DNA of 32,000 bases from an uncultured Actinomycetes bacterium (GCA_963843975.1 CAWJMG010000003.1:1410001-1442000); one strand, 5' to 3'; positions 2,604 to 15,447 are shown, counted from the stretch's first letter. Notes: generated by a model from the letters alone, not told the origin. A program made the numbers and translations.

Positions 2604-4214
2604 CTACCTGCCGCGGCGCAGGAGCCCGAGCGCTCCGGCGTCGTCGACCACGACGGCGAGGTCGCCGTCCTCGTCGGTGCGGCCGACCACCGCCCCGACA
2701 TCCCGATAGGCCGCGACCGTCTCGGGGGCGGGGTGGCCGTAGTCGTTGTCGACCCCGACGCCGATCAGGGCGATACGCGGCCGGAACGATGTCGCCCAGG
2801 CCGCCGACTGGTAGCGCGAGCCGTGGTGCGGCACCTTCACGACGTCGACGGGCGTCACCGGCGTCTGCGCGAGCACGGCGTCCTGCGCCGCCTCCTCGAG
2901 GTCGCCGCCGAGGGCGAAGGTGACGCCGTCGACCTCGGCGAGCACGGTCACGCTCGCGTTGTTGGCGTCGGAGCCCTCGCCGCGGATGAACCGCGTCGGC
3001 CACACCACCCGCAGGTGGACCGACCCGATCCGCCACTCGTCGCCGGGGGACGCCGTCCGCATCGACGCACCGGAGTCCGTCAGCCAACGCAGCACGCGCC
3101 GCTCCTCCCCCGGCGGGTCGTCGAGCGGTGACGTGACCACGACGCCCACGGCCCGGCCGCGCAGGACGCCGGGCAGCCCCTCGACGTGGTCGGCGTGGAA
3201 GTGCGTGAGGAGCACGAGCGGCACGCGGGTGACCCCGAGCCGCCGCAGGCACCGGTCGACCAGGGACGGATCGGGCCCCGTGTCGACGACGACCGCCTCG
3301 CTCGTCGCCACCCGGAGGACGAGGGAGTCGCCCTGGCCGACGTCGCACATCACGGCCCGCCAGCCCGACGGCGGCCAGGCGAGAGCACCGGGCACGACGA
3401 CGGGGACGGGCGCCACCGCGACGACCACGCAGGCCACGGCGCCGACGACCAGCGAGGTGCGCAGCACCGGCCCGCCGTGGCGCCGGGCGAGCCACGCACC
3501 CGTCGCCGCCAGCGCGGTGACGACGGTGATCGACGCCGCCCCGGCCCAGCCCGACGGCCACGGCAGGCTGCCCGCGAGCACCGAGGTCTGGCGGGCGACG
3601 ATCGCGATCCACGAGACCGCCCACCCAGCAGGCAACGCGACGACCGAGGCCGCCGGTGCCGACACCAGTCCCACGACCGCTGCGACCAGTCCGAGGGACG
3701 TCGCCGGCGCGACCGCGGGCTCGGCGAGAAGGTTGGCGACGACGCCGCCCACCGGCACTCCCCCGCCGATGCCGACCACGAGCGGTGCGACCGCGAGCTG
3801 GGCAGCCGCGCTCACCACCACGAGCGCACCGACCGCCCCGCGAGTGCGCTGCCACCACGTGCCTTCCACGAGCCCCGGCCCGGCCCGGGCGGCCACGAGG
3901 ATCAGCGCGGCCGTGGCGGCCACCGACATCGCGAAGCCGACCGAGAGGGCGAGGAACGGGTCGAGCAGCACGAGTGAGGCGACGGCGACGGCCAGCGCGT
4001 CGAGCGGCTTCACCCGCAGGTCGAGCAGCAGCACCACCAGGACGACCGCGGCCATCGCGGCGGCCCGGAGCACCGACGGCTGCGGCCGCGCGACCACGAC
4101 GTACGCCGCCACCGCCAGACCCACGACGAGCAGCTGCGCGACGCCGCGCCGCAGGCCCACGAGGCGGCCGAGCACGACGACGACGGCGACCACCACTGCG
4201 ACGTTGCCACCGCT
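2604..4214 (-). CDS. comEC: ComEC/Rec2 C-terminal fragment (membrane competence domain remainder plus metallo-beta-lactamase domain), separated from its 5' part by the inserted element
   Basis: The minus frame is open from 4226 and reads SGGNVAVVVAVVVVLGRL..., followed by many TM helices. It continues ...MCDVGQGDSLVL...LLTHFHADHVEGL...VVKVPHHGSRYQ... (MBL fold). The first in-frame start is GTG 4196 and there is no plausible promoter or RBS. It continues the frame of the fragment at 13913-14707 across the shared core. Confidence 0.9.
   Translation of the reverse strand, partial: SGGNVAVVVAVVVVLGRLVGLRRGVAQLLVVGLAVAAYVVVARPQPSVLRAAAMAAVVLVVLLLDLRVKPLDALAVAVASLVLLDPFLALSVGFAMSVAATAALILVAARAGPGLVEGTWWQRTRGAVGALVVVSAAAQLAVAPLVVGIGGGVPVGGVVANLLAEPAVAPATSLGLVAAVVGLVSAPAASVVALPAGWAVSWIAIVARQTSVLAGSLPWPSGWAGAASITVVTALAATGAWLARRHGGPVLRTSLVVGAVACVVVAVAPVPVVVPGALAWPPSGWRAVMCDVGQGDSLVLRVATSEAVVVDTGPDPSLVDRCLRRLGVTRVPLVLLTHFHADHVEGLPGVLRGRAVGVVVTSPLDDPPGEERRVLRWLTDSGASMRTASPGDEWRIGSVHLRVVWPTRFIRGEGSDANNASVTVLAEVDGVTFALGGDLEEAAQDAVLAQTPVTPVDVVKVPHHGSRYQSAAWATSFRPRIALIGVGVDNDYGHPAPETVAAYRDVGAVVGRTDEDGDLAVVVDDAGALGLLRRGR
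4204..4214. repeat. attL core (TTGCCACCGCT)
   Basis: The same 11-mer, with one A/G difference, recurs at 13926-13936. On the minus strand both copies encode the S-G-G-N codons of comEC. Confidence 0.8.
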
Positions 4215-4233
4215 AATTGTGCATAGTTAGGGT
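4204..4233 (+). promoter_or_regulatory. Candidate integrase promoter overlapping the att core (TTGCCA, 18 nt spacer, TAGGGT)
   Basis: The -35-like TTGCCA (4204-4209) is the left half of the att core. The TANNNT-type -10, TAGGGT, is at 4228-4233. The ATG at 4240 lies 7 nt after the -10, which suggests a leaderless transcript. Confidence 0.35.
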
Positions 4234-4239
4234 GTGCAG

Positions 4240-5628
4240 ATGCGAGCCATCACCTACGCCAGGAAGTCGAACACCGACACGCGCAACCCCGGCAAGAGTG
4301 TCCGAGACCAGCAGCGCGAGGCACGCACCGAAGTCGAACGCCGCGGCTGGACCCTCATCGACGAGCTGAAGGACGACGGCATCGGAGCAAGCCGCCACAG
4401 CCGTAAGCGCGAGCGCCCCGGCTTCGACGCGCTTCTCGACCTCATCGCCACGCGCAAGGTCGATGCAGTGGTGCTGCCTGAGCAGAGCCGCGCCACCCGT
4501 CGCTTATCGATCCTCGGCGCCCTGCTCGAGGAGTGCGCCGACGCCGGAGTGCTCCTCGTGATCGACGGCCGCGAGATGGATCCGAGCAACGCCGGTGACC
4601 TCCTACAGCTCGGCGTGCAAGGCGCCGTCGACGTCGCCGAGGTCGAGCGCACCCGCGAGCGGGTCGAGCGCGGGATGCGCGGATCAGCCGCAGCAGGCAG
4701 GCCCCACGGGCGCCCCGTGTTCGGGTACACGCGCATCTACTCGCCCTCGAGCCGCGAGCTGCTGCGCGTGGACGTCCAGCCGCAGCAGGCGGCAATCGTG
4801 CGTCGCATCGCGGAACACCTCCTCACCGGTGGCACGGTCCGCAGCATCACCCTGGCGCTGAACGCCGAGGGCGTCCCGAATCCGACCGGTCGCGCGTGGC
4901 ACCCGTCGAGCGTGCGACGCATGATCGTGTCGCCGACGTACGCCGGGCGCAGGGTGCACCGCGGGGCAGTCGTCGGCGACGGTGACTGGCCCGCGATCCT
5001 CACCCTCGACGAGCACCTGGCGCTCGTTGCGGCCATGACCGCGCCCGGACGAGCCTCCAAGCGCCCCAGCGTGCGCAAGCACTTGTGCAGCGGGCTCGCG
5101 CGGTGCAGCGAGTGCGAAGGCCCTCTGCGCGTCGTCCTCGACCGTCGACGCCCGACCTACGCCTGCGCGACACCGGGGTGCTACCGAGTGACCGTCGGGA
5201 AGGAGTCTCTGGACGCCTTCGTGAGCGAGGCCCTCCGGGCTCGGCTCGCGCGTCCGGACGTCGTCGCCGCGCTCGGCCGCGGAGACATCGCAACGGTGCA
5301 GGCCGCACGGGACGCGCTCGACGACCTCGACGCACGCCGCGCGGACGTGCTCGCGATGCTCGCGGACGGCACGCTGCGCCGCGCCGAGGCAACCCCGATC
5401 CTGAAGAGCATCGACGCCGAGCGTCGCGACGCCGACGCGCGCGCCCTCGCCGCCGTCGGCTCCCGCGAGCTCCTCGATCTCGACGTCAACAGGCTCGACG
5501 CTCCGACGCTCGCGCGCGTCGCCCCCCTTGTCCTGTCACGTGTCGTCGTCCGACGATCGGCGCAGGTTCGTGGGCACAACAGGTTCGATGCGTCGCGTGT
5601 GACGTTCGAATGGATCGGCGCGGACTGA
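4240..5628 (+). CDS. Large serine recombinase (integrase)
   Basis: The N-terminus MRAITYARKSNTD carries the YxRxS catalytic-serine context of the resolvase domain. A recombinase domain and a Cys-rich zinc ribbon follow (CSGLARCSECEGPL...YACATPGCY), then a coiled-coil tail. An alternative GTG start is at 4234. Confidence 0.9.
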   Translation: MRAITYARKSNTDTRNPGKSVRDQQREARTEVERRGWTLIDELKDDGIGASRHSRKRERPGFDALLDLIATRKVDAVVLPEQSRATRRLSILGALLEECADAGVLLVIDGREMDPSNAGDLLQLGVQGAVDVAEVERTRERVERGMRGSAAAGRPHGRPVFGYTRIYSPSSRELLRVDVQPQQAAIVRRIAEHLLTGGTVRSITLALNAEGVPNPTGRAWHPSSVRRMIVSPTYAGRRVHRGAVVGDGDWPAILTLDEHLALVAAMTAPGRASKRPSVRKHLCSGLARCSECEGPLRVVLDRRRPTYACATPGCYRVTVGKESLDAFVSEALRARLARPDVVAALGRGDIATVQAARDALDDLDARRADVLAMLADGTLRRAEATPILKSIDAERRDADARALAAVGSRELLDLDVNRLDAPTLARVAPLVLSRVVVRRSAQVRGHNRFDASRVTFEWIGAD

Positions 5629-5893: not shown

Positions 5894-6073
5894 ATGCCGC
5901 TCCTACCCTCGATCCAAGATCACACGCTCTACGTTCGCGACGTCGTGGAGCTCCTCAACGTCGACGCCACAACGGTTCGCCGCTGGGTCGCCGACGGGAA
6001 GCTGCCCGCCGTACGCGTTGGCAATGTGCTGCGATTCCGCGCAGTAGACGTCGACGCTCTCGTGAAGCGATGA
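5894..6073 (+). CDS. Excisionase-family helix-turn-helix DNA-binding protein (candidate recombination directionality factor)
   Basis: This 59-aa ORF is below the ORF-track cutoff. It reads MPLLPSIQDHTLYVRDVVELLNVDATTVRRWVADGKLPAVRVGNVLRFRAVDVDALVKR, the classic Xis/MerR-type HTH_17 pattern. The RBS GGGGAG lies 6 nt upstream, and its stop overlaps the next start (ATGA). Confidence 0.8.
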   Translation: MPLLPSIQDHTLYVRDVVELLNVDATTVRRWVADGKLPAVRVGNVLRFRAVDVDALVKR

Positions 6074-6189
6074 CTGCCCTCACACCGGACGCCCTCGAGT
6101 TGGCGCGCCAGGCTGCCGACGAGGCCCCGGAGCTCAGCGCTGCGCAGGCCGCGCGAGTCGTCGCCGTGCTCTGCGAGTCATCGAGGTGA
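6070..6189 (+). CDS. Small hypothetical protein (39 aa), translationally coupled on both sides
   Basis: MTALTPDALELARQAADEAPELSAAQAARVVAVLCESSR. Its ATG overlaps the xis stop, and its TGA overlaps the GTG of the next gene (GTGA). No family was recognised. Confidence 0.45.
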   Translation: MTALTPDALELARQAADEAPELSAAQAARVVAVLCESSR

Positions 6190-7496
6190 GCGACTCAACG
6201 CCCATCCCCCGCGACGAGCTTGAGGTCGCCGTGGCGTGCCTGTCGGAGTCGGACCTGCGGGCACTCATGGGCGACGCCGTACGCGCAAACCTCCTCGAGC
6301 TACGGCGAGACCCGCGGGGCCTTGTCGGAGTCGGCACCTACAGCGAGCGCGCCGACAGGCGGAAGGCCGCGGAGGCCGTCGCCGACGAGCGCCGTCGCCA
6401 GCAGGCCCGCGAACAGGTCCGAAGGGAACGCGCAGACGCCGCCTTCAGGGCTCCAAGTGCCCTCGAAGTCCTCTCGAACGCCCCCGATCACGAGACCGAC
6501 GACGTGCACCGCGTCGAAGGCTTCCTGCCCCTCGACGGAAGCGCGACCGTCATCGGCGCGGCTAAGGTTGGAAAGTCCACGCTGCTCGTCGAACTCGTGC
6601 GCTGCCTCGTCGACGGCGAGCCGTTCCTTGACGCCTACCCGGTGAAGCAGGTTGACGACGGCCGCGTGGTCGTGCTCAACCTCGAGGTGAGCCCGCGCAC
6701 CTACCGGCGGTGGCTGCGCCGTGCCGGCATCCGCAACGCCCACGCGGTCGGGGTGCTGCACATGCGCGGTACGGGTTTCGAGATCGAGTCGCCCGCAGCC
6801 CGAGCCTGGCTGGTCGACCAGCTCCGGCAGGCGTCAGCCCGCGTTCTCATCGTTGACCCGTTCTCGGCCATTTACCGGGGGCAGTCCGACGTCGACAACC
6901 GGGAGGTGCGCGGTTGGCTCGACGAGCTGTCAGCCGTGGCGCTCGAGGCCGGGGTGCGGGAGGTGGTGCTCGGCGTGCACGCGGGGCGGGACAAGAGCCG
7001 CAGCCGCGGCGCGTCCGCGCTCGACGACTGGCCGGACGCCGTGTGGACGATCACCCGCGACGCGAGCACCAACCTGCGCTCAATCGCCGTCGACGGCCGC
7101 CACGACCGCAAGGCCGGCGACGTCGTGCTCACGTTCGACGAGTCGACCCACAGAGTCGCCCTCGACGTCCGCGCCTCCGGGATCACACCAGCACAGCGGA
7201 AGGCGCACGAGGCCGACCGACGGCGCGCAGAGCGCTACAGCGCCGACCGTGCCGACGAGATGCAGCTGCTCCACCTGGTCAGAGAGCGCCCCGGCATGTC
7301 GGCGCGGGAGCTGCGCTCCGAGCTTCGTTCGCGGCTAAGTAGTGGCGCGGAGCGTGCTGGGCAGGCGATTGACCGCTGCGTGGTTGAAGGCGACGTGGCG
7401 AAGGTGAAGGTGGGAAGGTCGACGGTCCTCGAGCTGACTGACAAGGGTCGTGCCCGGATCGAGCTCCCTTCGCTCATCGCAGGGGCGGCGCAGTGA
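6186..7496 (+). CDS. RecA-like P-loop ATPase (AAA_25 / RepA-type) with C-terminal winged-helix; probable replication initiator/helicase of the element
   Basis: Walker A is GAAKVGKST and the Walker B-like strand is ARVLIVDPFSAIY. The layout resembles plasmid RepA/DnaB-like AAA_25 proteins common on integrative elements. The C-terminus LLHLVRERPGMSARELRSEL...VKVGRSTVLELTDKGRARI looks like a wHTH. Confidence 0.7.
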   Translation: MSDSTPIPRDELEVAVACLSESDLRALMGDAVRANLLELRRDPRGLVGVGTYSERADRRKAAEAVADERRRQQAREQVRRERADAAFRAPSALEVLSNAPDHETDDVHRVEGFLPLDGSATVIGAAKVGKSTLLVELVRCLVDGEPFLDAYPVKQVDDGRVVVLNLEVSPRTYRRWLRRAGIRNAHAVGVLHMRGTGFEIESPAARAWLVDQLRQASARVLIVDPFSAIYRGQSDVDNREVRGWLDELSAVALEAGVREVVLGVHAGRDKSRSRGASALDDWPDAVWTITRDASTNLRSIAVDGRHDRKAGDVVLTFDESTHRVALDVRASGITPAQRKAHEADRRRAERYSADRADEMQLLHLVRERPGMSARELRSELRSRLSSGAERAGQAIDRCVVEGDVAKVKVGRSTVLELTDKGRARIELPSLIAGAAQ

Positions 7497-7501
7497 TCTG
7501 C

Positions 7502-7684
7502 GTGCCTTGGCAGTCGACCGCGCCGGCGAGGTCTGGGCCGCCTCGGCCGCATCGCCATGACTGTGCCTCGGTGCCTTCGGTGCCTCCCTATAAGCGTGCG
7601 AGGCACGCATATCGACGTGCGTCCGTGCCTTGGTGCCTCGGTGGCTTCCAGCGGGACCAAGTCCCACCGAGGCACACAAGGCAC
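7502..7684. repeat. Iteron-like cluster of GTGCCT(Y)GG motifs (candidate origin of replication)
   Basis: Direct GTGCCT copies lie at 7502, 7563, 7571, 7580, 7625 and 7633, with variant GTGGCT at 7641. Inverted AGGCAC copies lie at 7601, 7670 and 7679. Two tandem sets with 8-9 nt spacing flank a more AT-rich stretch (CTATAAGCG...CATATCGAC). The cluster starts immediately 3' of the ATPase gene. Confidence 0.55.
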
Positions 7685-7725
7685 ACCGGAAGACCAACGA
7701 ACCCACCCACACTGAGGAGCGAACG

Positions 7726-7998
7726 ATGACCGACTTCTACGACGGCCCTACTCGCGAGCAGGCGGAGGCCGCGCACGCCAATCTCGCCGCCCAGCTCATC
7801 GTCGCCTGGGATGCCGCACGACACCTCGCCGACGACCACGAGGCGCGTCCGATGCGCGACCTCCTCGAGACTGCGCCGGCAGACGCTGCTTGGGCGCTCG
7901 GCGTGCTGCTCGGACACGCGATCGAGTACGGCGCGGACCGCGCCCTGGACGAGGCCCTCGAGAGTCTGCGGCTCGACGTCGAGGCGGTGGCCTCGTGA
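7726..7998 (+). CDS. Hypothetical protein (90 aa)
   Basis: The ATG at 7726 is preceded by the RBS GAGGAG. The product is acidic and helical (MTDFYDGPTREQAEAAHANLAAQLIVAWD...). Its stop overlaps the next start (GTGA). No family was recognised. Confidence 0.6.
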   Translation: MTDFYDGPTREQAEAAHANLAAQLIVAWDAARHLADDHEARPMRDLLETAPADAAWALGVLLGHAIEYGADRALDEALESLRLDVEAVAS

Positions 7999-8315
7999 CG
8001 CCGCCTCGCGCCGCTCAGAGCGCCCAACGGCCCGCCTGGGTTCCTCCTGTTCCGAGCCCCACCTCCGTGGAGCCTGATGCCCTCTTCGCCCTCCTGCGGC
8101 GCCTCGTCGAGGCGAGCGAGCGGCAGGCGGAGGCGGCGGAACGGCACACCTACCTGCTCGCGGCAATCTTGACCGCGATCGACGACGGCACCGCAGCCAG
8201 GATCGAGGGTCGGGCATCGGTGGCCGTGCGGGATGCCGAGGACACGCGCTTCAACCTCGGCCGCCTCACCGACCAAGCCGAGCGGCTCGCCGCCGTCGAC
8301 CGGGAAGATGGGTAG
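7995..8315 (+). CDS. Hypothetical protein (106 aa), Pro-rich N-terminus plus predicted coiled coil
   Basis: The GTG at 7995 is coupled to the upstream stop. The sequence ...LFALLRRLVEASERQAEAAERHTYLLAAILTAIDDG... looks coiled-coil. Its stop overlaps the start of the connector-like gene by 1 nt. No family was recognised. Confidence 0.55.
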   Translation: MTPPRAAQSAQRPAWVPPVPSPTSVEPDALFALLRRLVEASERQAEAAERHTYLLAAILTAIDDGTAARIEGRASVAVRDAEDTRFNLGRLTDQAERLAAVDREDG

Positions 8316-8782
8316 TGGCGCCGCCCTACGCCGAGGTCGGCGATCTCGAGACACGGTTGGGTCGCGAGCTCCGCGACACCGAGCTTGATCGCGCAGGGAC
8401 GCTCCTCGAGACGGTCTCCGTCTACATCGACCTTCACCTCGAAACCTGCGTCGACACGATCGCCACCGACTACCCGCAGGTGCTCGTCGACGTCGTGTGC
8501 GGCGCAGTGCTGCGTGAGCTCGCTCGCGACCCCAGCCGTGACCCCACCGCCGTCAGCGTGCAGCTCGGCGACACCGCGGTGGCCTACCGCTATGACAAGC
8601 CTCGGGGCTCCGCATTGGGGCCGCTCACCGAGGACGAGGTCGCCACCCTGCGACGGGCGTGTGGGCAGCAGTCGACGCGAGGCGTCTCAAGCGTCCCACT
8701 GGCGTCGACGTTGCAAGCGATGCCTAACGTCGAGGACGACGAGACTGCTGGCTGGCGGCCGATGTACCCCAACCTCCCCTAA
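8315..8782 (+). CDS. Phage head-tail connector/adaptor-like protein (Gp19/Gp15/Gp42-type)
   Basis: The N-terminus (V)APPYAEVGDLETRLGRELRDTELDRAGTLLETVSVYIDLHL matches the characteristic opening of actinophage head-to-tail adaptor proteins (YATVEDLEARLGR-LTD-E--RA--LL-DAS). This is recognition-based only. Confidence 0.5.
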   Translation: MAPPYAEVGDLETRLGRELRDTELDRAGTLLETVSVYIDLHLETCVDTIATDYPQVLVDVVCGAVLRELARDPSRDPTAVSVQLGDTAVAYRYDKPRGSALGPLTEDEVATLRRACGQQSTRGVSSVPLASTLQAMPNVEDDETAGWRPMYPNLP

Positions 8783-8789
8783 CCACCGT

Positions 8790-8824
8790 GGCCCGGCGTG
8801 CACACGAGCGCGGCACGCCGGGCC
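8790..8824 (+). terminator. Stem-loop after the connector-like gene
   Basis: A perfect 12-bp stem, GGCCCGGCGTGC / GCACGCCGGGCC, encloses an 11-nt loop and begins 8 nt after the stop. There is no U-tract, which is common in high-GC actinobacteria. Confidence 0.5.
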
Positions 8825-9074
8825 GCGGTCCTGCCTTACTCCCTCGCAGGCTCGGGTTAACCTCGAAGCGGACAACGGATCCGGTGAGCTGGCCGACACG
8901 GCGAGCATCGGTGACGGGCTGGCAGCCGACAAGGTGCAGCACCCACGTGAGGCGCGGACACCGCGCGGCATGCCCACAGCGTCGGGGTGCCGCAGCGAGC
9001 CGGCAGCGCTCGTGACACACCACCGATTCTCCGGGTGTGCACGCGCGCGCCCGCATCCCACTTCAGGAGTACCC

Positions 9075-9881
9075 ATGTCCGTCACCCGTGACAGCTTCAA
9101 CGGGGAGCCGTTCCCCACCGCCGTCGTGCAGAAGATCCTCAACGACTCCCTCGAGGACACCCCTCTGCTCGGCAACATCACCGTCGAGCGCACCAACCGC
9201 GAGAGCAAGACCTTCCTCGCCGCCGACCCGTCCGGCTTCGACTGGCGAGCCGAGGGCGCCGAGCTCCCAACCGTCGCGCTCAACGACGACTCCGCCGTGT
9301 TCGCGCCCGCGAAGCTCGCCGGCCTCATCGAGATCACCAACGAGGCGATCGACGACAGCGAGTTCAGCATCACCGGCGCCATCACCAACGCGATCCGCGA
9401 CTCGATGCTCGTCAAGGCCGAGCGCGACACCCTCTACGCGCCCGCCGTCCCGAACGCCGCGGCACCCACGCCCGTCGTGCCCGGACTCGGCGCGGCCGTT
9501 TCCGGCGACTCGCTGCGGCTCGCTGCTATCGCCGCGTGCGGCGAGATCCTCGGCGCAGGTGGCAGGCCCGACCGCATCTTCATCTCCCCTGACCTGTGGG
9601 TGGCGGAGATGCAGGGCCGCGCGCTCGACGGTGGCAGCCTCGTCGACCCATTCACGGACCTCGGCCTGCGCACCGTCATCGTGCCCAACCTCGACGCCGA
9701 GGACGGCATCGTGGCGGACAGCAGCCGTGTCTACGCGGTGTGGCGCAAGGACGCGTCGATCGAGATGAGCGACACCCCTGCGTGGAGCCGCGACGCGTGG
9801 TCGTTCCGCGTGAAGGCCCGTCTGGTGCTCGCCATCCCGCAGGTCGCGAAGGCCGCACGGCTGCTCGCCGTCACCCCCTAG
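9075..9881 (+). CDS. HK97-family phage major capsid protein (short form, 268 aa)
   Basis: The ATG at 9075 follows the RBS AGGAG. The pattern ...VVQKILNDSLEDTPLLGNITVERTNRESKTFLAADPSGFDWRAEGAELPTVALNDDSAVFAPAKLAGLIEITNEAIDDSEFSITGAITNAIRDSMLVKAERDTLY...IFISPDLW...VIVPNL...VYAVWRKDASIEMS...RVKARL matches the Phage_capsid (HK97) sequence pattern. Confidence 0.8.
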   Translation: MSVTRDSFNGEPFPTAVVQKILNDSLEDTPLLGNITVERTNRESKTFLAADPSGFDWRAEGAELPTVALNDDSAVFAPAKLAGLIEITNEAIDDSEFSITGAITNAIRDSMLVKAERDTLYAPAVPNAAAPTPVVPGLGAAVSGDSLRLAAIAACGEILGAGGRPDRIFISPDLWVAEMQGRALDGGSLVDPFTDLGLRTVIVPNLDAEDGIVADSSRVYAVWRKDASIEMSDTPAWSRDAWSFRVKARLVLAIPQVAKAARLLAVTP

Positions 9882-10074
9882 CAAGGCAGCTCGGCTCGTG
9901 TCCTGGTCGTCACGAGGCGAGAGCTCGAGGCCGCACGGTCAGCGGCGCGACGAGAGCCCGCGGACGCTTCAGGGACGTCGCGGCGGGCAACCCATGACAA
10001 TGCTTGGTGCGAAGGATGACCGTCGGTACGGTCGGCGGGTGGCAACTCATGCGCAGTCGGATTCAGACTCGAAT

Positions 10075-10893
10075 ATGAACCGCGTCTCAGGGCTGACCGA
10101 CTGGTTGCGCAGTAACGCGCCGTGGCTTGCTGGCCTTGTCTGGGCGGCAGTGGTCGCCGTTCGAGTTGCCATTCTTGCCGACGGGGACTGGGGCAAGGCA
10201 CAGGCAATTGCTCAGGTTGCGGGGCTCGTTGGCCTCGCCCTGTCTACGGCAGTCGCTGTGCTCCCGTTGTTCCTGGCCATGGTGGCCTTTCTTTGCCTGC
10301 TCTGGTTCCGTCGCCGCCGCTTGCTGTCGATGCAGCTTTTGACTGCGGTGCTACTCGTTTCCCTCCTCGTCTTGGCCATGCCAGCGATACAAGCCGTGAT
10401 CTTGTCGCTAACGGCCTGTGGAGCGGGGCTCATGTGGTGGGCCGTCAAGCGGGAAGACAAAGCCGGGCCCGGAACGGAGTCGGAGTCAACGTCAGAGGAG
10501 GCTGACGAATCGGAGGCAATGGGATCGCCGGCACAGGACCCGCCGCTGTCCCCGGAGATCGCTGTGCTGAGCGACCCGGTTGGACGCCTGCTCTGGTACA
10601 CCCTGACGGCGACGTTTGTGGTGGTGACCTTCTCGTTCCTTGCTCCGTGGGGGGCCACAGAAAGAATCACGTTCACAGATGCCAAAGGGAAGCAGACCTT
10701 AGCCGTGGGCTACGTGATCCCGAGCAGCGACTTCTACCTCGTGGTCCCGAAGTCAGATGATCAAATGTTCTACGTGCGCACGGACAATATCGTTCAACGA
10801 GACCTCTGCAGCACAGCCAAGTCAGGTCGATCCTTGGAATTGTCAATCGTGGCCCTTGTGGATGGCCGGACGCCGCTGCCGACCTGCGATTGA
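10075..10893 (+). CDS. Multi-pass membrane protein of unknown function (about 6 TM helices, an acidic linker, and a ~70-aa C-terminal soluble domain)
   Basis: Part of ORF 9898..10893. MNRVSGLTDWLRSNAPWLAGLVWAAVVAV... is the most natural N-terminus; alternative ATGs lie at 9994 and 10000. GC is visibly lower and A/T third positions are more frequent than in the flanks. No family was recognised. Confidence 0.6.
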   Translation: MNRVSGLTDWLRSNAPWLAGLVWAAVVAVRVAILADGDWGKAQAIAQVAGLVGLALSTAVAVLPLFLAMVAFLCLLWFRRRRLLSMQLLTAVLLVSLLVLAMPAIQAVILSLTACGAGLMWWAVKREDKAGPGTESESTSEEADESEAMGSPAQDPPLSPEIAVLSDPVGRLLWYTLTATFVVVTFSFLAPWGATERITFTDAKGKQTLAVGYVIPSSDFYLVVPKSDDQMFYVRTDNIVQRDLCSTAKSGRSLELSIVALVDGRTPLPTCD

Positions 10894-10958
10894 GGCACGG
10901 GGGGGGGTCTCCCGAGCTTCCACCTGCTCCCCGCAACGGGGTCTCTGCACGTAGTTGG

Positions 10959-11729
10959 CTACGGGTTTTGACCTTTGGCGGCCGCGCTCGGCCCTTCGGC
11001 CAACTCGGCTGATGGTTTCAAGGCCGACACCTCTGCCATGAGCTGCTCAATCAACTCACGCTGCGCCCGCATCTCGGTCAGCAGCTCGTCCTCACCCTGC
11101 CGCGTTCGCTGTACGAACCATGCCGCTACCGCTGCGGTGATGACGCCGAGCATGGAGATACCGACCAGCATCAAGGCGAAGGCAACCACCCTTCCCACTG
11201 GCGTGACGGGAAAGACGTCGCCGTACCCAACGGTGGTGACCGTCGCACCTGCCCACCACAACGCATCACCGATCGTTGAAACGTGAGTGCCCGGGGCGTC
11301 TCGCTCGGTGTCGAGCATCGCCAGCGCAGCAACGAGCAGTAGAAGCGCGGTGGCGGCGACGGCAGCTGCGACGGTGCGCCCGATCGCGAAGCGACCTCCG
11401 CGCGAGATTACGTAGTTTGCGGCAGTGAACACGCGCAGAACGCGCAGCGGGCGCAGCATCGGCAGCGCCACCAGCAGGAAGTCGATGGGGTGCCGCATGA
11501 GGTACTGACCTGGGCTGCCAGAGAGATACGCGCGCAAACCCAAGTCACACACGAACACGACCCAGACGGCGAAACTGAGCAACTCGTCGCCCAATGCCAG
11601 ACCGGGCGGAAGCGAGGGCCAGACGATAGGCAGGGCGTACAGAACAAGGAATGCGCCGGCGAGGATCAACAAGGGGATCGTTGTTCGGTGCTCATAGCGA
11701 TCGAGACGTTCGCGAGCAGGCGACGACAT
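10959..11729 (-). CDS. Voltage-gated-type (6TM) potassium channel
   Basis: The selectivity filter reads TTVGYGD. An S4-like helix has Arg at every third residue (LRPLRVLRVFTAANYVISRGGR), and the C-terminus is a coiled coil. The start is taken at MSSPARERLDRYEH (ATG 11729, with RBS GTGGAG upstream) rather than the ORF-track start at 11828. Confidence 0.85.
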   Translation of the reverse strand: MSSPARERLDRYEHRTTIPLLILAGAFLVLYALPIVWPSLPPGLALGDELLSFAVWVVFVCDLGLRAYLSGSPGQYLMRHPIDFLLVALPMLRPLRVLRVFTAANYVISRGGRFAIGRTVAAAVAATALLLLVAALAMLDTERDAPGTHVSTIGDALWWAGATVTTVGYGDVFPVTPVGRVVAFALMLVGISMLGVITAAVAAWFVQRTRQGEDELLTEMRAQRELIEQLMAEVSALKPSAELAEGPSAAAKGQNP

Positions 11730-11872
11730 CTCCACATCCGGACCGTACCCAGCATCACCCAGGCGGGACCCGCGCCACGCTGGGTACGTGCTCCGGCAAC
11801 GGGCGCCCCATCTCGCTACGGTGGCCACATCATCGCCGCGAGAAGGCGGCTAACGGGGAACGGGGCACTTCC

Positions 11873-12754
11873 ATGAAACGTGGCTTGACGCTTGGTGTCG
11901 CAGCTCTGGCGACTTGCCTGAGTGCGATGACCATTGCCGGGCCGGCCGCGCAGGCCACGCCGACCCAGCCCACGGCCGCGATCGCGGTCACGCCGCGGGC
12001 ACTCTTGGCGAAGTTGACGGTCGCTGCCGAGGTGGGCTTCTCCTCTTACGCTCGGGAGAAGTTCCAGTACCCGACCGACGCCAACTCCGACTGCCAGAAC
12101 ACCCGCGCCGAGGTTCTCTTGCAGGAGACCCGAACGAAGGCTTCCTTCACCTCGTCGTCGCGCTGCACGGTGCAGTACGGAACCTGGCTCTCCTATTACG
12201 ACGGGCTCACGATCAAGAAGGCCTCGAGTCTTCAGATCGATCACTTGGTCCCGCTCTACGAGGCATGGACGTCCGGCGCTAGGAAGTGGAATGTCGCCAC
12301 GCGCAAGGCGTATGCCAACGATCTCTCCTACGGACCCACGCTCGTCGCTGTCTCCGCGTCGACGAACCTGTCCAAGGGTTCGAAGGACCCCGCGCAGTGG
12401 CTACCATCTCTGGCCGCCGCCCGTTGCAAGTACGCGATCCAGTGGATGCAGGTGAAGTACCGGTGGCGCTTGACTGTTGACTCGTCTGAGAAGTCGGCCC
12501 TTCTGTCCATCCTGTCCGGCGCTTGCGGCACCAAGGCCGTTGTGCTGCCAGCACGCGCCTCGGTGAGCTACACCACCACGACGTCGGGTTCAGGCGGTAG
12601 CACTGGGGGCGGTGGCAACAGCAGCGGCACCGACCCGCGTTACGGGACTTGCACGGAGGCCAAGAGCCACGGCCTAGGGCCCTACTACCGAGGCACCGAT
12701 CCCGAGTACTACTGGTACAACGACCGAGACAACGACGGCATCGTCTGTGAATGA
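11873..12754 (+). CDS. Secreted HNH/DUF1524-type nuclease with C-terminal Excalibur calcium-binding domain
   Basis: The signal peptide is MKRGLTLGVAALATCLSAMTIAGPAAQA. The DUF1524 core reads LQIDHLVPLYEAWTSGARKW...ANDL...NLSKGSKDPAQWLP...CKY, followed by a Gly/Ser linker. The Excalibur motif is DPRYGTCTEAKSHGLGPYYRGTDPEYYWYNDRDNDGIVCE. Confidence 0.8.
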   Translation: MKRGLTLGVAALATCLSAMTIAGPAAQATPTQPTAAIAVTPRALLAKLTVAAEVGFSSYAREKFQYPTDANSDCQNTRAEVLLQETRTKASFTSSSRCTVQYGTWLSYYDGLTIKKASSLQIDHLVPLYEAWTSGARKWNVATRKAYANDLSYGPTLVAVSASTNLSKGSKDPAQWLPSLAAARCKYAIQWMQVKYRWRLTVDSSEKSALLSILSGACGTKAVVLPARASVSYTTTTSGSGGSTGGGGNSSGTDPRYGTCTEAKSHGLGPYYRGTDPEYYWYNDRDNDGIVCE

Positions 12755-12900
12755 AATGGCTGCCCGGTTGTCGTCCGTGTAGGTGACGGCTTGTGCAGGC
12801 CGGGCGCCCTCGACCCGATGATTGAAGGGTCGTTGACGGGCGCGTGGCAACGGCAGGGGAACGTCGACCAGCAGACGACCGACGGGCTGACTGTCTGGAC

Positions 12901-12958
12901 GACACCTACGACGAGTCGGCCCCGGCGAATTCGCCGGGGCCGACTCGTCGTAGGTGTC
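12901..12958. terminator. 58-bp perfect palindrome (29-bp arms, no loop, centred on GAATTC); probable bidirectional terminator between the convergent nuclease and doc genes
   Basis: GACACCTACGACGAGTCGGCCCCGGCGAA | TTCGCCGGGGCCGACTCGTCGTAGGTGTC was verified base by base. It overlaps the doc stop codon by 2 nt. Confidence 0.6.
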
Positions 12959-13388
12959 ACTCGTGCTGAGATCCCTCAGCCAGTCGGACATCGACCTCTT
13001 GGTCCTCCGTCAGGCCCGGGACGGCCACGCACGCCGACTTCAGCACCTCGGCGAGTTGCGTGACGTCCAGTTCATGTCGAGCCACGCGCATCGCCACCTC
13101 GTAGACCTCGGAGTCCGACAGCAGAAGGGTGTGAGCATTCAGCGCGAAGAAGACTCGGGTCGCCGTGAACGCCGTGCGCTTGTTTCCCTCCAAAAAGGGC
13201 TGATGGCCGTCGATGCTCGTCCACAAGGCCGCAGCCTTGTCATACAGGGTTGGGTACGCGTCCTCACCACCTACGGTCTGCTGCGGCCTGGCGACCGCCG
13301 CTTCGAGACCTGAGGGGTCTCGAAGCGGCGCATCGTCCAGATCGTCGTGAATGCGGACCACGTCAGCGACGGTGAGGTAGTGCGTCAT
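12957..13388 (-). CDS. doc: Fic/Doc-family toxin (death-on-curing type)
   Basis: The start is MTHYLTVADVVRIHDD (ATG 13388). The Doc signature HQPFLEGNKRTAF (HxFx[D/E]GNKR) is present. The product is 143 aa and lies 19 nt downstream of a small RHH-like gene. Confidence 0.85.
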   Translation of the reverse strand: MTHYLTVADVVRIHDDLDDAPLRDPSGLEAAVARPQQTVGGEDAYPTLYDKAAALWTSIDGHQPFLEGNKRTAFTATRVFFALNAHTLLLSDSEVYEVAMRVARHELDVTQLAEVLKSACVAVPGLTEDQEVDVRLAEGSQHE

Positions 13389-13407
13389 CGTCTTGCTCCA
13401 GTTGGCT

Positions 13408-13644
13408 CTAGCCCCTGAGCTTGTCGAGGGCGACCACGTGGCGCTCCTGCGTCTCCGTGACCACAGCTCCGATGAGTTCCGCGCGGCCGGGACCATCAAG
13501 AAACTCGCGGAGCAGGTTCGTGATGGTCTCGTTCGCGCTACGGCGCGTGTGGAACGAGTACGTGCGGAGTGCCTCGTGCAGATCGGGATCAAGCCGAACG
13601 GTTACGGCTTGACGCTGGATGTCGTGCGTGTGGACTTCGTTCAT
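13408..13644 (-). CDS. Antitoxin (ribbon-helix-helix / Phd-like) partnered with Doc
   Basis: The ATG at 13644 is preceded by the RBS GGAGGA. The 78-aa product reads MNEVHTHDIQRQAVTVRLDPDLHEALRTYSFHTRRSANETITNLLREFL..., a typical RHH beta-strand followed by helices. It sits directly upstream of doc. Confidence 0.7.
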   Translation of the reverse strand: MNEVHTHDIQRQAVTVRLDPDLHEALRTYSFHTRRSANETITNLLREFLDGPGRAELIGAVVTETQERHVVALDKLRG

Positions 13645-13671
13645 TGCCGTCCTCCGGTGGTCGAGGGGAGG

Positions 13672-13722
13672 ACGACGCAGCGGGGAAGACTGCTGTGTCA
13701 CTGGAATCGTTGGCTGCGTCGT
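13672..13722. promoter_or_regulatory. Inverted repeat ACGACGCAGC / GCTGCGTCGT upstream of the antitoxin gene (possible TA operator)
   Basis: The 10-bp arms lie at 13672-13681 and 13713-13722, 28-78 nt upstream of the antitoxin start codon on the minus strand. Confidence 0.3.
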
Positions 13723-13775
13723 TTGTGAGAGGTTTGGGATACCAAGCGAGGATGCTTTTTGGCGACGAGTTGCTG

Positions 13776-13827
13776 GCTAGGTTTCTGATTGCTCGCGGTT
13801 TGCTAGGTCTCTGAAGTTCTCGCGGTT
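13776..13827. repeat. Tandem imperfect ~25-bp direct repeat in the AT-richer right arm of the element
   Basis: GCTAGGTTTCTGATTGCTCGCGGTT (13776-13800) is followed, after one intervening base (13801), by GCTAGGTCTCTGAAGTTCTCGCGGTT (13802-13827). Confidence 0.5.
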
Positions 13828-13912
13828 GTTGGAGTTGGCCACCTCCGTGACGCCATGATGGCATGCTATCAAGATCATTACAACCCAATCTCGAAGTTCT
13901 CCCCTGCCCCTC

Positions 13913-14707
13913 CTAGCAATGCGCATTGCCGCCGCTCACCGCCGTCAGGTGGGCGAGGCCCGAGTCGCGCATGGCCTGTGCGAGCTCGGGGCTCTGCGCG
14001 GACGTGTCGCCGACGACCAGGCCGGGCAGGAGGCCGCGGACGTCCGACGACCGGTCTGAGACGGATGCCCGCAGCGACTCGCGGACGGCACCCGCACCGA
14101 CCTGGACCGGCGGCGGGCCGCGCACGACCTCCACCGTGTCGGCCATGAGCGTGGCAGCTCGGCCACGACGTGGATCCGCGGGAAGGAGCCGGCCGGTGGC
14201 GTGCAGTCCGGTGCCGGGCAGCAGCGAGGCGACGCCTGCGGACGCGTCTCCCGATGTGATCACCTGCACCGGCAGGTCGAGCTCGTACGTCTCGCCCGTA
14301 ACGGTGGCCGTCAGCAGCGCGGCCTCGAACGTCCACGCGTCGTCCATGCGTCGCGAGCCCGACGTACGGCCGTCGCGCACGCGCGGGTCGGACGTGGTCA
14401 CCAGCTCGGCCCGGACGAACGAGTGCGCGCCCGCCGCTGCCGCGAGCGGGCCGTCGAGCAGCGGCGCGACCCGCCACGCGGAGACGGACGCCGACAGGAG
14501 GACGAGCAGCCCGACGGCCGTGACGTCGACGGCTGTGACGGACGTGCGGCGGGAGGCCAGGGCGAGGGCTGCCGCGACGACGAGCGCGAGCGCCATCGCG
14601 AGCCCTGCGGGCGGGAGCGGGATCGACGGCGCCAGCCCGACCACAGCCGCGGCCGAGCCCCAGACGGCGACAGCCGCGATCGAGGCCCTCGTGGGTCGCG
14701 CGGTCAC
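13913..14707 (-). CDS. comEC: ComEC/Rec2 N-terminal fragment (truncated by the insertion; the last 3 codons, AHC, and the stop are element-derived)
   Basis: The GTG at 14707 overlaps the comEA stop (GTGA). TM helices and an OB-like region follow. The fragment ends ...LPGLVVGDTSAQSPELAQAMRDSGLAHLTAVSGGN-AHC*, so it breaks inside the conserved HL-AVSG-N competence-domain motif. Confidence 0.88.
   Translation of the reverse strand: MTARPTRASIAAVAVWGSAAAVVGLAPSIPLPPAGLAMALALVVAAALALASRRTSVTAVDVTAVGLLVLLSASVSAWRVAPLLDGPLAAAAGAHSFVRAELVTTSDPRVRDGRTSGSRRMDDAWTFEAALLTATVTGETYELDLPVQVITSGDASAGVASLLPGTGLHATGRLLPADPRRGRAATLMADTVEVVRGPPPVQVGAGAVRESLRASVSDRSSDVRGLLPGLVVGDTSAQSPELAQAMRDSGLAHLTAVSGGNAHC
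13926..13936. repeat. attR core (TTGCCGCCGCT)
   Basis: This is the second copy of the 11-nt core. The element-side sequence just before it, GCAATGCGCATTGC, is itself a 14-bp palindrome. Confidence 0.8.
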
Positions 14708-15447
14708 ACGGTCACCAGCGGCGCGAGCCGCTCGAAGGTGCGGTCGCCGATCCCCGACACCTCGCGCAGCTGGTCGACCGAGGCGAAGCGGCCGTTCTGC
14801 GTGCGCCAGTCGATGATGCGGCCGGCCATCACCGGACCCACCCCGGGCAGCGTGTCGAGGTCGTCGACGGTCGCGGTGTTGAGGTTCACGGGCCCGGCCG
14901 GTGCTCCGCTCCCGGAGCCGCTCGCTACCGGCGGCGCGGTCGCCGCGTCGTGCGCGACGTCGACCTGCTCGCCGTCCACGAGCAGGCGGGCGAGGTTGAG
15001 GCCGCCCGAGCTGCCGCCTTTGCTCAGCCCGCCCGCGGCCTCGATCGCATCGGCCACCCGGGATCCGGGCGGCAGCCGCACCAGCCCGGGACGCCGCACC
15101 TCCCCCACCACGTGCACGACGAGATCGGGCTGCGCGCTCGGCGAGGCCGAGCTGCCCGGCCGCCCGGCGAGCGAGCCCGACACCACCGGCATCGGCGTGC
15201 CGGGCACGAGCGCGACCGGAGTGGGGGCACCGCCGGTGACCGTACGCAGCAGCAGCCACGCGGCGAGCGCCGTGACGCCGACGGCGACGAGCACCGGGCG
15301 CGCCGCCATAGGCAGCACCCAGCGAGGTGCGCCCGGGGACGGACCGGTGCCGTCGTCGTCGTGCGGCGCTGCCCCGCCCGCGGCGAGCGCTCGGAGCCGC
15401 TCACGGACTGCGTCCGGGTCGGGGCGGGGTCGAGGGCGGGGCAGCAC
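14704..15447 (-). CDS. comEA: ComEA-like DNA receptor (SLBB plus helix-hairpin-helix)
   Basis: An N-terminal TM helix is followed by VVHVVGEVRRPGLVRLPPGSRVADAIEAAGG (SLBB). The C-terminus reads VNLNTATVDDLDTLPGVGPVMAGRIIDWRTQNGRFASVDQLREVSGIGDRTFERL (HhH). The start is uncertain; an internal ATG at 15309 is possible. Confidence 0.85.
   Translation of the reverse strand: MLPRPRPRPDPDAVRERLRALAAGGAAPHDDDGTGPSPGAPRWVLPMAARPVLVAVGVTALAAWLLLRTVTGGAPTPVALVPGTPMPVVSGSLAGRPGSSASPSAQPDLVVHVVGEVRRPGLVRLPPGSRVADAIEAAGGLSKGGSSGGLNLARLLVDGEQVDVAHDAATAPPVASGSGSGAPAGPVNLNTATVDDLDTLPGVGPVMAGRIIDWRTQNGRFASVDQLREVSGIGDRTFERLAPLVTV

Follow-up and report, generated by a model that had tools for sequence, protein, structure and literature searches.

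The lower-GC cargo block at the right end of a satellite-like element in the chromosome of an uncultured Actinomycetes bacterium probably comprises four passenger units, independently acquired and independently transcribed, that occupy a cargo hotspot and do not make up one system. The window analyzed (the whole stretch GCA_963843975.1 CAWJMG010000003.1:1410001-1442000, 32,000 nucleotides; positions are counted from its first letter) contains the element at ~4217 to ~13925, about 9.7 kb in length, where it interrupts comEC. The units are a membrane protein (gene A), a Kv-type K+ channel (gene B), an exported nuclease (gene C) and a toxin-antitoxin pair (genes E and D). The initial annotation had taken all four together as a single candidate module for defense or competition. 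As a defense "system", the block is incoherent.

Relatives of the four units were not found in each other's company. Among 62 loci with a relative of gene B, no relatives of A, D, E, the capsid, the AAA_25 protein or the integrase were detected by local tblastn with all element proteins. None of A, B, D or E had a relative at the 80 viral loci (795 kb in total) where a relative of gene C occurs. Members of the A family were seen in eight other, mutually unrelated contexts, which shared no conserved neighbor and had neither a K+ channel nor a Doc gene beside the family member. PADLOC 2.0 returned no match for A, B, C or E and only weak Fic-domain matches of D to PDC-S23. The initial annotation had proposed comparing homologous elements for co-variation of the genes as a cassette; the units instead appeared unlinked and independently acquired, which is the outcome it had itself set against the single module.

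The cargo block extends from the stop codon of the capsid gene to the right attachment core (9882-13924) and makes up ~42% of the element. GC was 0.602-0.660 in all eight 500-bp intervals of 10001-14000, compared with 0.69-0.71 in the intervals of 6001-10000 in the left part of the element and 0.69-0.79 (mostly 0.72-0.79) in the flanking chromosome. The five cargo genes had a GC of 0.61-0.64 and a third-position GC (GC3) of 0.73-0.81; the corresponding values for the core genes from integrase to capsid were 0.63-0.71 and 0.75-0.93, and in the chromosomal genes comEC, holA and leuS GC3 spanned 0.76-0.98, with 0.94-0.98 in holA, leuS and the C-terminal part of comEC. For the left half of the element as a whole, GC was about 70% and GC3 0.84-0.93. 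The drop in GC and GC3 coincided with the capsid stop codon at 9881. The lower GC and weaker GC3 bias reported for the right 40% of the element were thus confirmed, and so was the mixed gene orientation: the genes lie in the order A-B-C-D-E on strands +, -, +, - and -, as five intact open reading frames with a coding GC3 signal.

This alternating orientation separates the transcription units. Genes A and B are convergent, with 65 bp between their stop codons. Genes B and C diverge from a 143-bp intergenic region (11730-11872) with a perfect 10-bp inverted repeat (11744-11753 / 11779-11788). Between the convergent genes C and D lies a perfect 58-bp palindrome (12901-12958) that abuts the stop codon of D; it has 29-nt arms, no spacer and an EcoRI site at its center, and it occurs once in the window. 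The 101-nt stretch containing it had a predicted folding energy of -78.5 kcal/mol (z = -11). The palindrome probably serves as a terminator in both directions or as an insulator, shielding the toxin-antitoxin operon from gene C. An independent Logan assembly of the same element stops near the palindrome (contig end ≈ 12926-12930, by coordinate offset). Over the aligned interval 9800-12700, the only difference between the window and an independent assembly (L001) was a 2-bp indel at ~10914-10915, beside a G-run between A and B. A scan of the cargo block for sigma-70 and terminator consensus sequences was uninformative.

The left border of the block is the last core gene, which encodes an HK97-type major capsid protein (9075-9881, + strand; Phage_capsid_4, 6e-11; TIGR01554, 5.8e-12; phrog_10). 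Relatives of this capsid are rare: seven proteins were found among 5.8 billion, a scan of 185,579 species genomes and IMG/VR with the capsid profile found none, and the same profile recovered three short contigs from metagenomes. Five capsid relatives had five different downstream contents, one of them a defense gene. At L077 (691-2847), a gene for an Mrr type IV restriction enzyme (PADLOC mREase_IV, 2.4e-30) comes immediately after a capsid 44% identical to ours. An IS30-type transposase lies downstream of the capsid at L002, and on L074 and the P0008 contig only an open reading frame of ~100 aa or 62 aa precedes a serine recombinase. Satellites are known to carry rapidly swapped accessory and defense genes at fixed hotspots (PMC13586616, PMC10085698). 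The distinct composition of the block and the Mrr, IS30 and near-empty contents at the related loci support the view, already put forward in the initial annotation, that the block is an accessory hotspot of a satellite; the position after the capsid behaves as a variable cargo site, which sometimes holds recognized defense genes.

Gene A (9994-10893, + strand) encodes a membrane protein of a sparse, uncharacterized family; depending on whether translation begins at 9994 or at 10075, the product has 299 or 272 aa. The public annotation (P0001) retains only the C-terminal 153 aa, and the Logan assembly gives 299 aa from 9994. GC3 favored the long form, showing a coding signal from at least 10120 and through all 272 aa. 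No match was found in Pfam, NCBIfam, PHROGs or PADLOC, in agreement with the earlier statement that A belongs to no recognized family, and no relatives occurred in phage or plasmid records. Word-indexed protein searches with the single sequence and the family profile returned essentially only A itself, and it took a full HMMER scan, covering 1.84 billion representatives, to find relatives: 12 weak ones of 230-387 aa (E 4e-7 to 1e-3). All have one layout in common, with a helical membrane domain at the N-terminus in which a GD loop is conserved, then a linker that varies and is often acidic, one more transmembrane helix and finally the motif PW(L/M)PxExI ... VGYV ... R..C ... P..P.C.

Structure prediction of the product, which the initial annotation had called for, yielded an AlphaFold2 model built on the family alignment (mean pLDDT 71), with five long helices, a disordered segment at 130-162 and a C-terminal part folded as a five-strand barrel with one helix. 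Model and hydropathy agreed on five transmembrane helices, four before the linker and one after it, so the count of six given previously was revised; the acidic linker and the small C-terminal domain, now modeled as the barrel with its pair of cysteines, were borne out. From hydropathy and charge, the N-terminus, the RRRR loop and the acidic loop are predicted to be cytoplasmic and the SH3-like barrel extracytoplasmic, where the two conserved cysteines would suit a disulfide. Fold searches gave nothing significant, the top weak matches being generic SH3-like, Sm or Tudor barrels. Matches of the family profile to G protein-coupled receptors in PDB were dismissed as compositional similarity of transmembrane segments. 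Scans with degenerate patterns were fruitless, the alignments being too divergent, and sub-family scans of IMG/VR added one locus (L081).

The surroundings of the A relatives differed widely. One (L003) has a 414-aa gene on one side and a large serine integrase on the other, in an element that also has an AAA_25 protein. That element was considered as a further example of the same satellite type and rejected: its 247-aa protein is no capsid relative, and the two AAA_25 proteins resemble each other only in the P-loop. Other relatives adjoin a TrwC relaxase, HTH_17 and MerR (L005), stand amid three tyrosine recombinases and group II intron reverse transcriptases (L006), or lie near an AAA_16 ATPase (L008). 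At L007 (129-3741) the gene follows a UvrD/GajB-like helicase and precedes a DUF3987 protein. At L010 (1333-4079; also L009) it belongs to an island adjoining dprA/comM and begins within the end of a gene for an OLD/GajA-like ATPase (PADLOC GajA, 5e-22; PDB OLD 6p74, 8e-6). At L083 (279-2283; the same in L084 and L085) it is convergent with, and 110 bp from, a gene for a membrane-anchored DUF1524 and Excalibur nuclease 39% identical to C, and a lamin-tail-domain (LTD) protein comes next. Genes of ~375-414 aa adjoining family members were tried as a conserved partner and rejected, since they were not alike; gp28 of phage Finkle, which stands beside a phage homologue of C, was rejected as an A relative. 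Judged by these contexts, the A family is tied to mobile elements and islands and not to this satellite type, and there are hints that it may act as a membrane component of Gabija/OLD-type islands.

Gene B (10959-11729, - strand) encodes a 256-aa protein with six transmembrane helices that matched Ion_trans_2 (1.3e-16) and Ion_trans (1.6e-11, residues 53-211). It aligned to KvAP over residues 54-229 (chains 1orq, 2a0l and 6uwm, from residue 53/54) and to KcsA at 1.9e-21. The pore loop contains the K+ selectivity filter TTVGYGD, an S1-S4 sensor is present with RPLRVLRVF in S4, and the C-terminus forms a short coiled coil. By its filter and sensor, B is a predicted voltage-gated K+ channel, as the initial annotation had recognized. 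Relatives were found at 63 loci in species-representative genomes (21-57% identity, mostly 36-53%), spanning Streptomyces, Nonomuraea, Arthrobacter, Nocardioides, Terrabacter, Microbacteriaceae and Acidimicrobiia. A metagenome-assembled genome of Nanopelagicales had the best match (53%), and the neighbors at the two best loci were ordinary chromosomal genes. Phages hold distant relatives of the pore domain, such as phrog_7872 (3.8e-26). In Nocardioides phosphati (L014, 3628-6627), a chromosomal B relative (50%) was seen together with genes for a DUF4234 membrane protein and a DUF1524 nuclease and a separate Excalibur gene. Sbash gp31 was considered as a K+ channel homologue of B and dropped, the published account showing a 4-TM RexB-like protein (PMC6426596).

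Gene C (11873-12754, + strand) encodes a putative Sec-exported His-Me nuclease with a GmrSD_C/DUF1524 domain (8.5e-8) and, at its C-terminus, an Excalibur domain (5e-13). An N-terminal signal peptide ends in AQA, and the His-Me motif reads IDHLVPL..AW. An earlier paper lists this architecture as a subgroup of putative extracellular nucleases within the His-Me finger superfamily (group 3; PMC5714182), and C has its three features: an export signal, a His-Me domain and a C-terminal Excalibur. The earlier description of C as an exported HNH/DUF1524-Excalibur deoxyribonuclease (DNase) holds for the domains and the signal peptide, with DNase activity being inferred. Only GmrSD_C, Excalibur and the signal peptide were detected, and no DUF262/GmrS domain was found in or beside C; because of this and its export, C was assigned to the extracellular Excalibur nucleases and not to GmrSD.

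Relatives of C were numerous on mobile DNA. They occurred in 518 plasmid records, mostly of Streptomyces, Rhodococcus and Clavibacter, with up to 51% identity over the nuclease domain and up to 6 places for exported DUF1524 nucleases on one actinobacterial plasmid, and in 328 viral stretches of IMG/VR. The closest (61% identity, same two domains) lies in a high-GC provirus, 2.4 kb from a tyrosine integrase, and the relatives at L083 and L089 also share the domains of C. In Gordonia phage Finkle (L082, 4878-6205), gp27 is a homologue of C and overlaps gp28, a second membrane protein ending in Excalibur. One Streptomyces plasmid has a DUF1524 gene and a Doc pair 2.3 kb apart, a proximity expected of plasmid accessory regions.

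Genes D and E form a type II toxin-antitoxin pair of Doc (death-on-curing) type. The 143-aa product of D (12957-13388, - strand) is a Doc (Fic-fold) toxin by its matches to Pfam Fic/DOC (1.3e-13), phrog_577 (1.1e-24) and TIGR01550 (40.8 bits against a cutoff of 38.65) and to the solved Doc proteins 9vzc (6.7e-11) and 3k33 (5e-4) in PDB. Where the catalytic motif is HxFx[D/E/N][A/G]NKR, D has G-H-Q-P-F-L-E-G-N-K-R (HQPFLEGNKR at 62-71); aligned to 9vzc it has Q at the His position, and aligned to 3k33 a one-residue insertion after the His. With its catalytic His displaced by one residue, the toxin may be altered or inactive. The motif site was located at 13197-13226 of the window (Doc residues 55-64). 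Gene E (13408-13644, - strand) precedes D by 19 nt on their shared strand and encodes a 78-aa ribbon-helix-helix antitoxin or repressor (phrog_3180, Arc-like, 1.9e-7; Omega_Repress at 0.002, below cutoff). No PhdYeFM match to E was found in Pfam or PHROGs. Of the Phd/Doc pair with a ribbon-helix-helix antitoxin proposed initially, the Doc toxin and the ribbon-helix-helix partner stood and a Phd/YefM antitoxin did not.

Several observations weigh against four independent passengers. The hotspot sample consists of five related capsid loci, all on short contigs, and none of the capsid relatives at these five loci is a close one that shares the insertion site. GC is almost equal in the five cargo genes, which makes joint arrival possible. 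Because B and C diverge from a shared region with a perfect inverted repeat, they may be co-regulated from it. The DUF1524 and Excalibur genes of Nocardioides phosphati are two genes away from the channel; this single case (1/62 loci, about 780 kb) is compatible with chance and may be an ancestral B-C neighborhood or a coincidence. A second adjacency of A and C was found in L083-85, which is too thin for a cassette because nucleases of this family abound on the mobile elements of actinobacteria. In view of the A-C adjacency and the Nocardioides phosphati locus, some pairwise functional coupling within the block is conceivable.

One alternative is a new defense system made up of A, B and C, to which the Doc pair may or may not belong; in it A would sense infection at the envelope and open B, the cell would be depolarized in abortive infection and C would cut DNA at the surface. 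The genes do lie together in a satellite hotspot in which a relative has a known defense gene, and ion-channel effectors are established: RexAB-like Sbash gp30/31 (PMC6426596), Hailong HalA, and a validated K-channel-domain protein in a P4 hotspot (PMC13434031, PMC13586616). A-family members also stand in an operon with an OLD/GajA-like ATPase, beside a UvrD/GajB-like helicase and, in L083-85, next to a C-type nuclease. However, the transcription units alternate and hence form no operon, A occurs without a K+ channel in its eight other contexts, B without A in 62 loci, and C without A or B in 80 viral loci. An exported nuclease would have no access to phage DNA in the cytoplasm, and no cytoplasmic sensor partner of the RexA/DUF4747 kind or the HalB nucleotidyltransferase kind was seen: Pfam detected no DUF4747 among the block proteins, and 9882-13925, where the neighbors of B are A and C, held no nucleotidyltransferase domain. 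We consider this system very unlikely. Scarcely better placed is the idea that A founds a new membrane family of mobile elements and defense islands, acting in envelope exclusion or sensing with OLD/Gabija ATPases as partners in some lineages and an exported DUF1524-Excalibur nuclease in others, this one included; incoming DNA would then meet a barrier in which the satellite joins the disruption of comEC and degradation of DNA at the surface with a K+ channel. A partnership of A with C or with the ATPase as a new envelope-level system, based on two adjacencies, is a residual possibility.

An alternative with somewhat better prospects, still unlikely as an account of the block, is an intragenomic conflict over DNA uptake in place of phage defense, served above all by the nuclease: comEC is inactivated, the DNase would destroy transforming DNA, and the element would be spared recombinational curing. 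The element splits comEC at the codons for SGGN, and C combines a signal peptide with a His-Me nuclease domain and a Ca-binding Excalibur. Mobile elements are known to block transformation by insertion in comEC, comFA, comK or comM and by the exported DNases Dns, IdeA and SxnA, both strategies being listed in one review (PMC12378983), and C-type nucleases are often found on plasmids and proviruses of actinobacteria. Against this, with comEC already broken a DNase would be superfluous in the same cell unless the element excises reversibly; the fold of C differs from those of Dns and IdeA, natural transformation is presumed for this host, and the idea accounts for just one of the four units. The genes could also be ordinary host-type genes from actinobacterial chromosomes, carried passively for K+ homeostasis or scavenging of extracellular DNA and with no role in conflict between elements. 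Relatives of B are indeed chromosomal in Streptomyces, Nonomuraea, Arthrobacter, Nocardioides and others, with neighbors of housekeeping type, and the Nocardioides chromosome has one near DUF1524 and Excalibur genes. However, the best B relative is just 53% identical, therefore there was no recent capture; cargo GC3 far below that of the host indicates long residence in the mobile gene pool; members of the A and C families are found mainly on mobile elements; and a 9.7-kb satellite has scant space for useless DNA. Passive host genes are thus improbable, and four independent passengers in a cargo hotspot is the reading we prefer.

The window is part of a high-GC actinobacterial chromosome of about 73% GC. 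Its LeuS falls within a 90%-identity cluster that includes Longivirga aurantiaca (Sporichthyaceae), HolA groups with proteins of 'Candidatus Nanopelagicales' metagenome-assembled genomes, and by these markers the host is a Longivirga-like actinobacterium. The element divides comEC into an N-terminal fragment (13913-15259, - strand; Pfam Competence positions 1-31) and a C-terminal fragment (2604-4226, - strand; Competence positions 27-265 and a metallo-beta-lactamase domain). An 11-bp core is common to both junctions, as TTGCCaCCGCT on the left (4206-4216) and TTGCCgCCGCT on the right (13925-13935). Because this core sits within the comEC codons for S-G-G-N, clean excision would rebuild an intact comEC, and insertion by the large serine recombinase could be a reversible switch of DNA uptake. 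The remaining core genes encode this recombinase (4234-5628), an HTH_17 excisionase-like protein (5894-6073), an AAA_25 protein (6186-7496), the products of small open reading frames and a head-tail adaptor (8315-8782). Capsid and adaptor are the only head genes, and no terminase, portal or protease was found in the element with Pfam, PHROGs or NCBIfam. According to the defining passage of one source (PMC10690885), capsid-forming phage-inducible chromosomal islands (PICIs) have a full head and packaging set of capsid, protease, portal, connectors and terminases. The element is thus satellite-like but no capsid-forming PICI, and on its gene content it matches no named satellite family.

What the analysis shows is the identity of the genes, their composition, the site of insertion, the variable content of the position and the missing linkage; the biochemical activities and phenotypes considered here are all inferred. 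If the four units act separately, each may benefit the element in its own way. By analogy with P1 Doc, the labile antitoxin E would repress its operon and neutralize D, a kinase that would otherwise block translation. The toxin of this pair, which lies next to the right attachment site, would be freed if the element were lost or host expression were shut off, and this would favor retention of the element and possibly abortive infection. Judging from its domains, C would be exported by the Sec pathway and degrade DNA outside the cytoplasm in a Ca-dependent manner; its likeliest benefit would be destruction of incoming or competing DNA, complementing the disruption of comEC. As a predicted tetrameric voltage-gated channel, B may shift the membrane potential and so contribute to exclusion, abortive infection or host physiology; no trigger or partner for it was found in the block. 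Gene A would display a small, disulfide-stabilized beta-barrel outside the membrane, and a role in exclusion or sensing at the envelope is suggested because its family is confined to mobile elements and islands.

These results extend the rule that satellites swap accessory and defense genes at a fixed site to a poorly known, capsid-encoding satellite type of freshwater and soil Actinomycetota. They also provide three leads: an uncharacterized family of membrane proteins encountered on mobile elements and islands only, a predicted Kv-type channel, complete and satellite-borne, and an element that disrupts comEC and would also export a DNase, in keeping with the idea that mobile elements suppress natural transformation.

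Compared with known systems, the cargo site resembles the hotspots of P4-like satellites and PICIs in being a fixed slot between a core gene and an attachment site, with unrelated genes (including Mrr) and a distinct composition; none of the cargo genes here is a recognized defense system, and the element differs from P4-like satellites, PICIs and capsid-forming PICIs in combining a large serine integrase, an AAA_25 protein, an adaptor and a capsid. Gene B shares with KvAP-type channels the six transmembrane helices, RxxRxxR in S4, the TVGYG filter and alignment over sensor and pore, whereas it is borne on a mobile element (its relatives being chromosomal) and ends in a short coiled coil. With lambda RexAB, Sbash gp30-31 and Hailong HalA-HalB it has in common a prophage- or satellite-encoded membrane channel by which the membrane potential could collapse. 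In RexAB-like Sbash gp30/31, a 4-TM RexB-like channel is joined by a DUF4747 RexA-like partner (PMC6426596); B has no homology to RexB/gp31, has its own voltage sensor and lacks a RexA/DUF4747 or HalB partner, and it is set apart from these defenses because RexAB/Sbash and Hailong (PMC13434031) need partners absent here. Gene C shares the DUF1524 (GmrSD_C) His-Me domain with GmrSD type IV restriction enzymes but has no DUF262 and is exported. Like Dns of CJIE1 and IdeA/SxnA of SXT-type integrative and conjugative elements, it is a signal-peptide nuclease on an integrated element, and here a competence gene is disrupted as well; it differs from them in its DUF1524 His-Me finger and Excalibur and its Gram-positive host. 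The E/D pair has the Doc/Fic fold, the ..F.EGNKR motif, the small upstream antitoxin gene on the same strand and the carriage on a mobile element in common with P1 Phd-Doc, while its antitoxin is of the Arc-like ribbon-helix-helix type instead of Phd/YefM and the catalytic His of its toxin is shifted by one residue.

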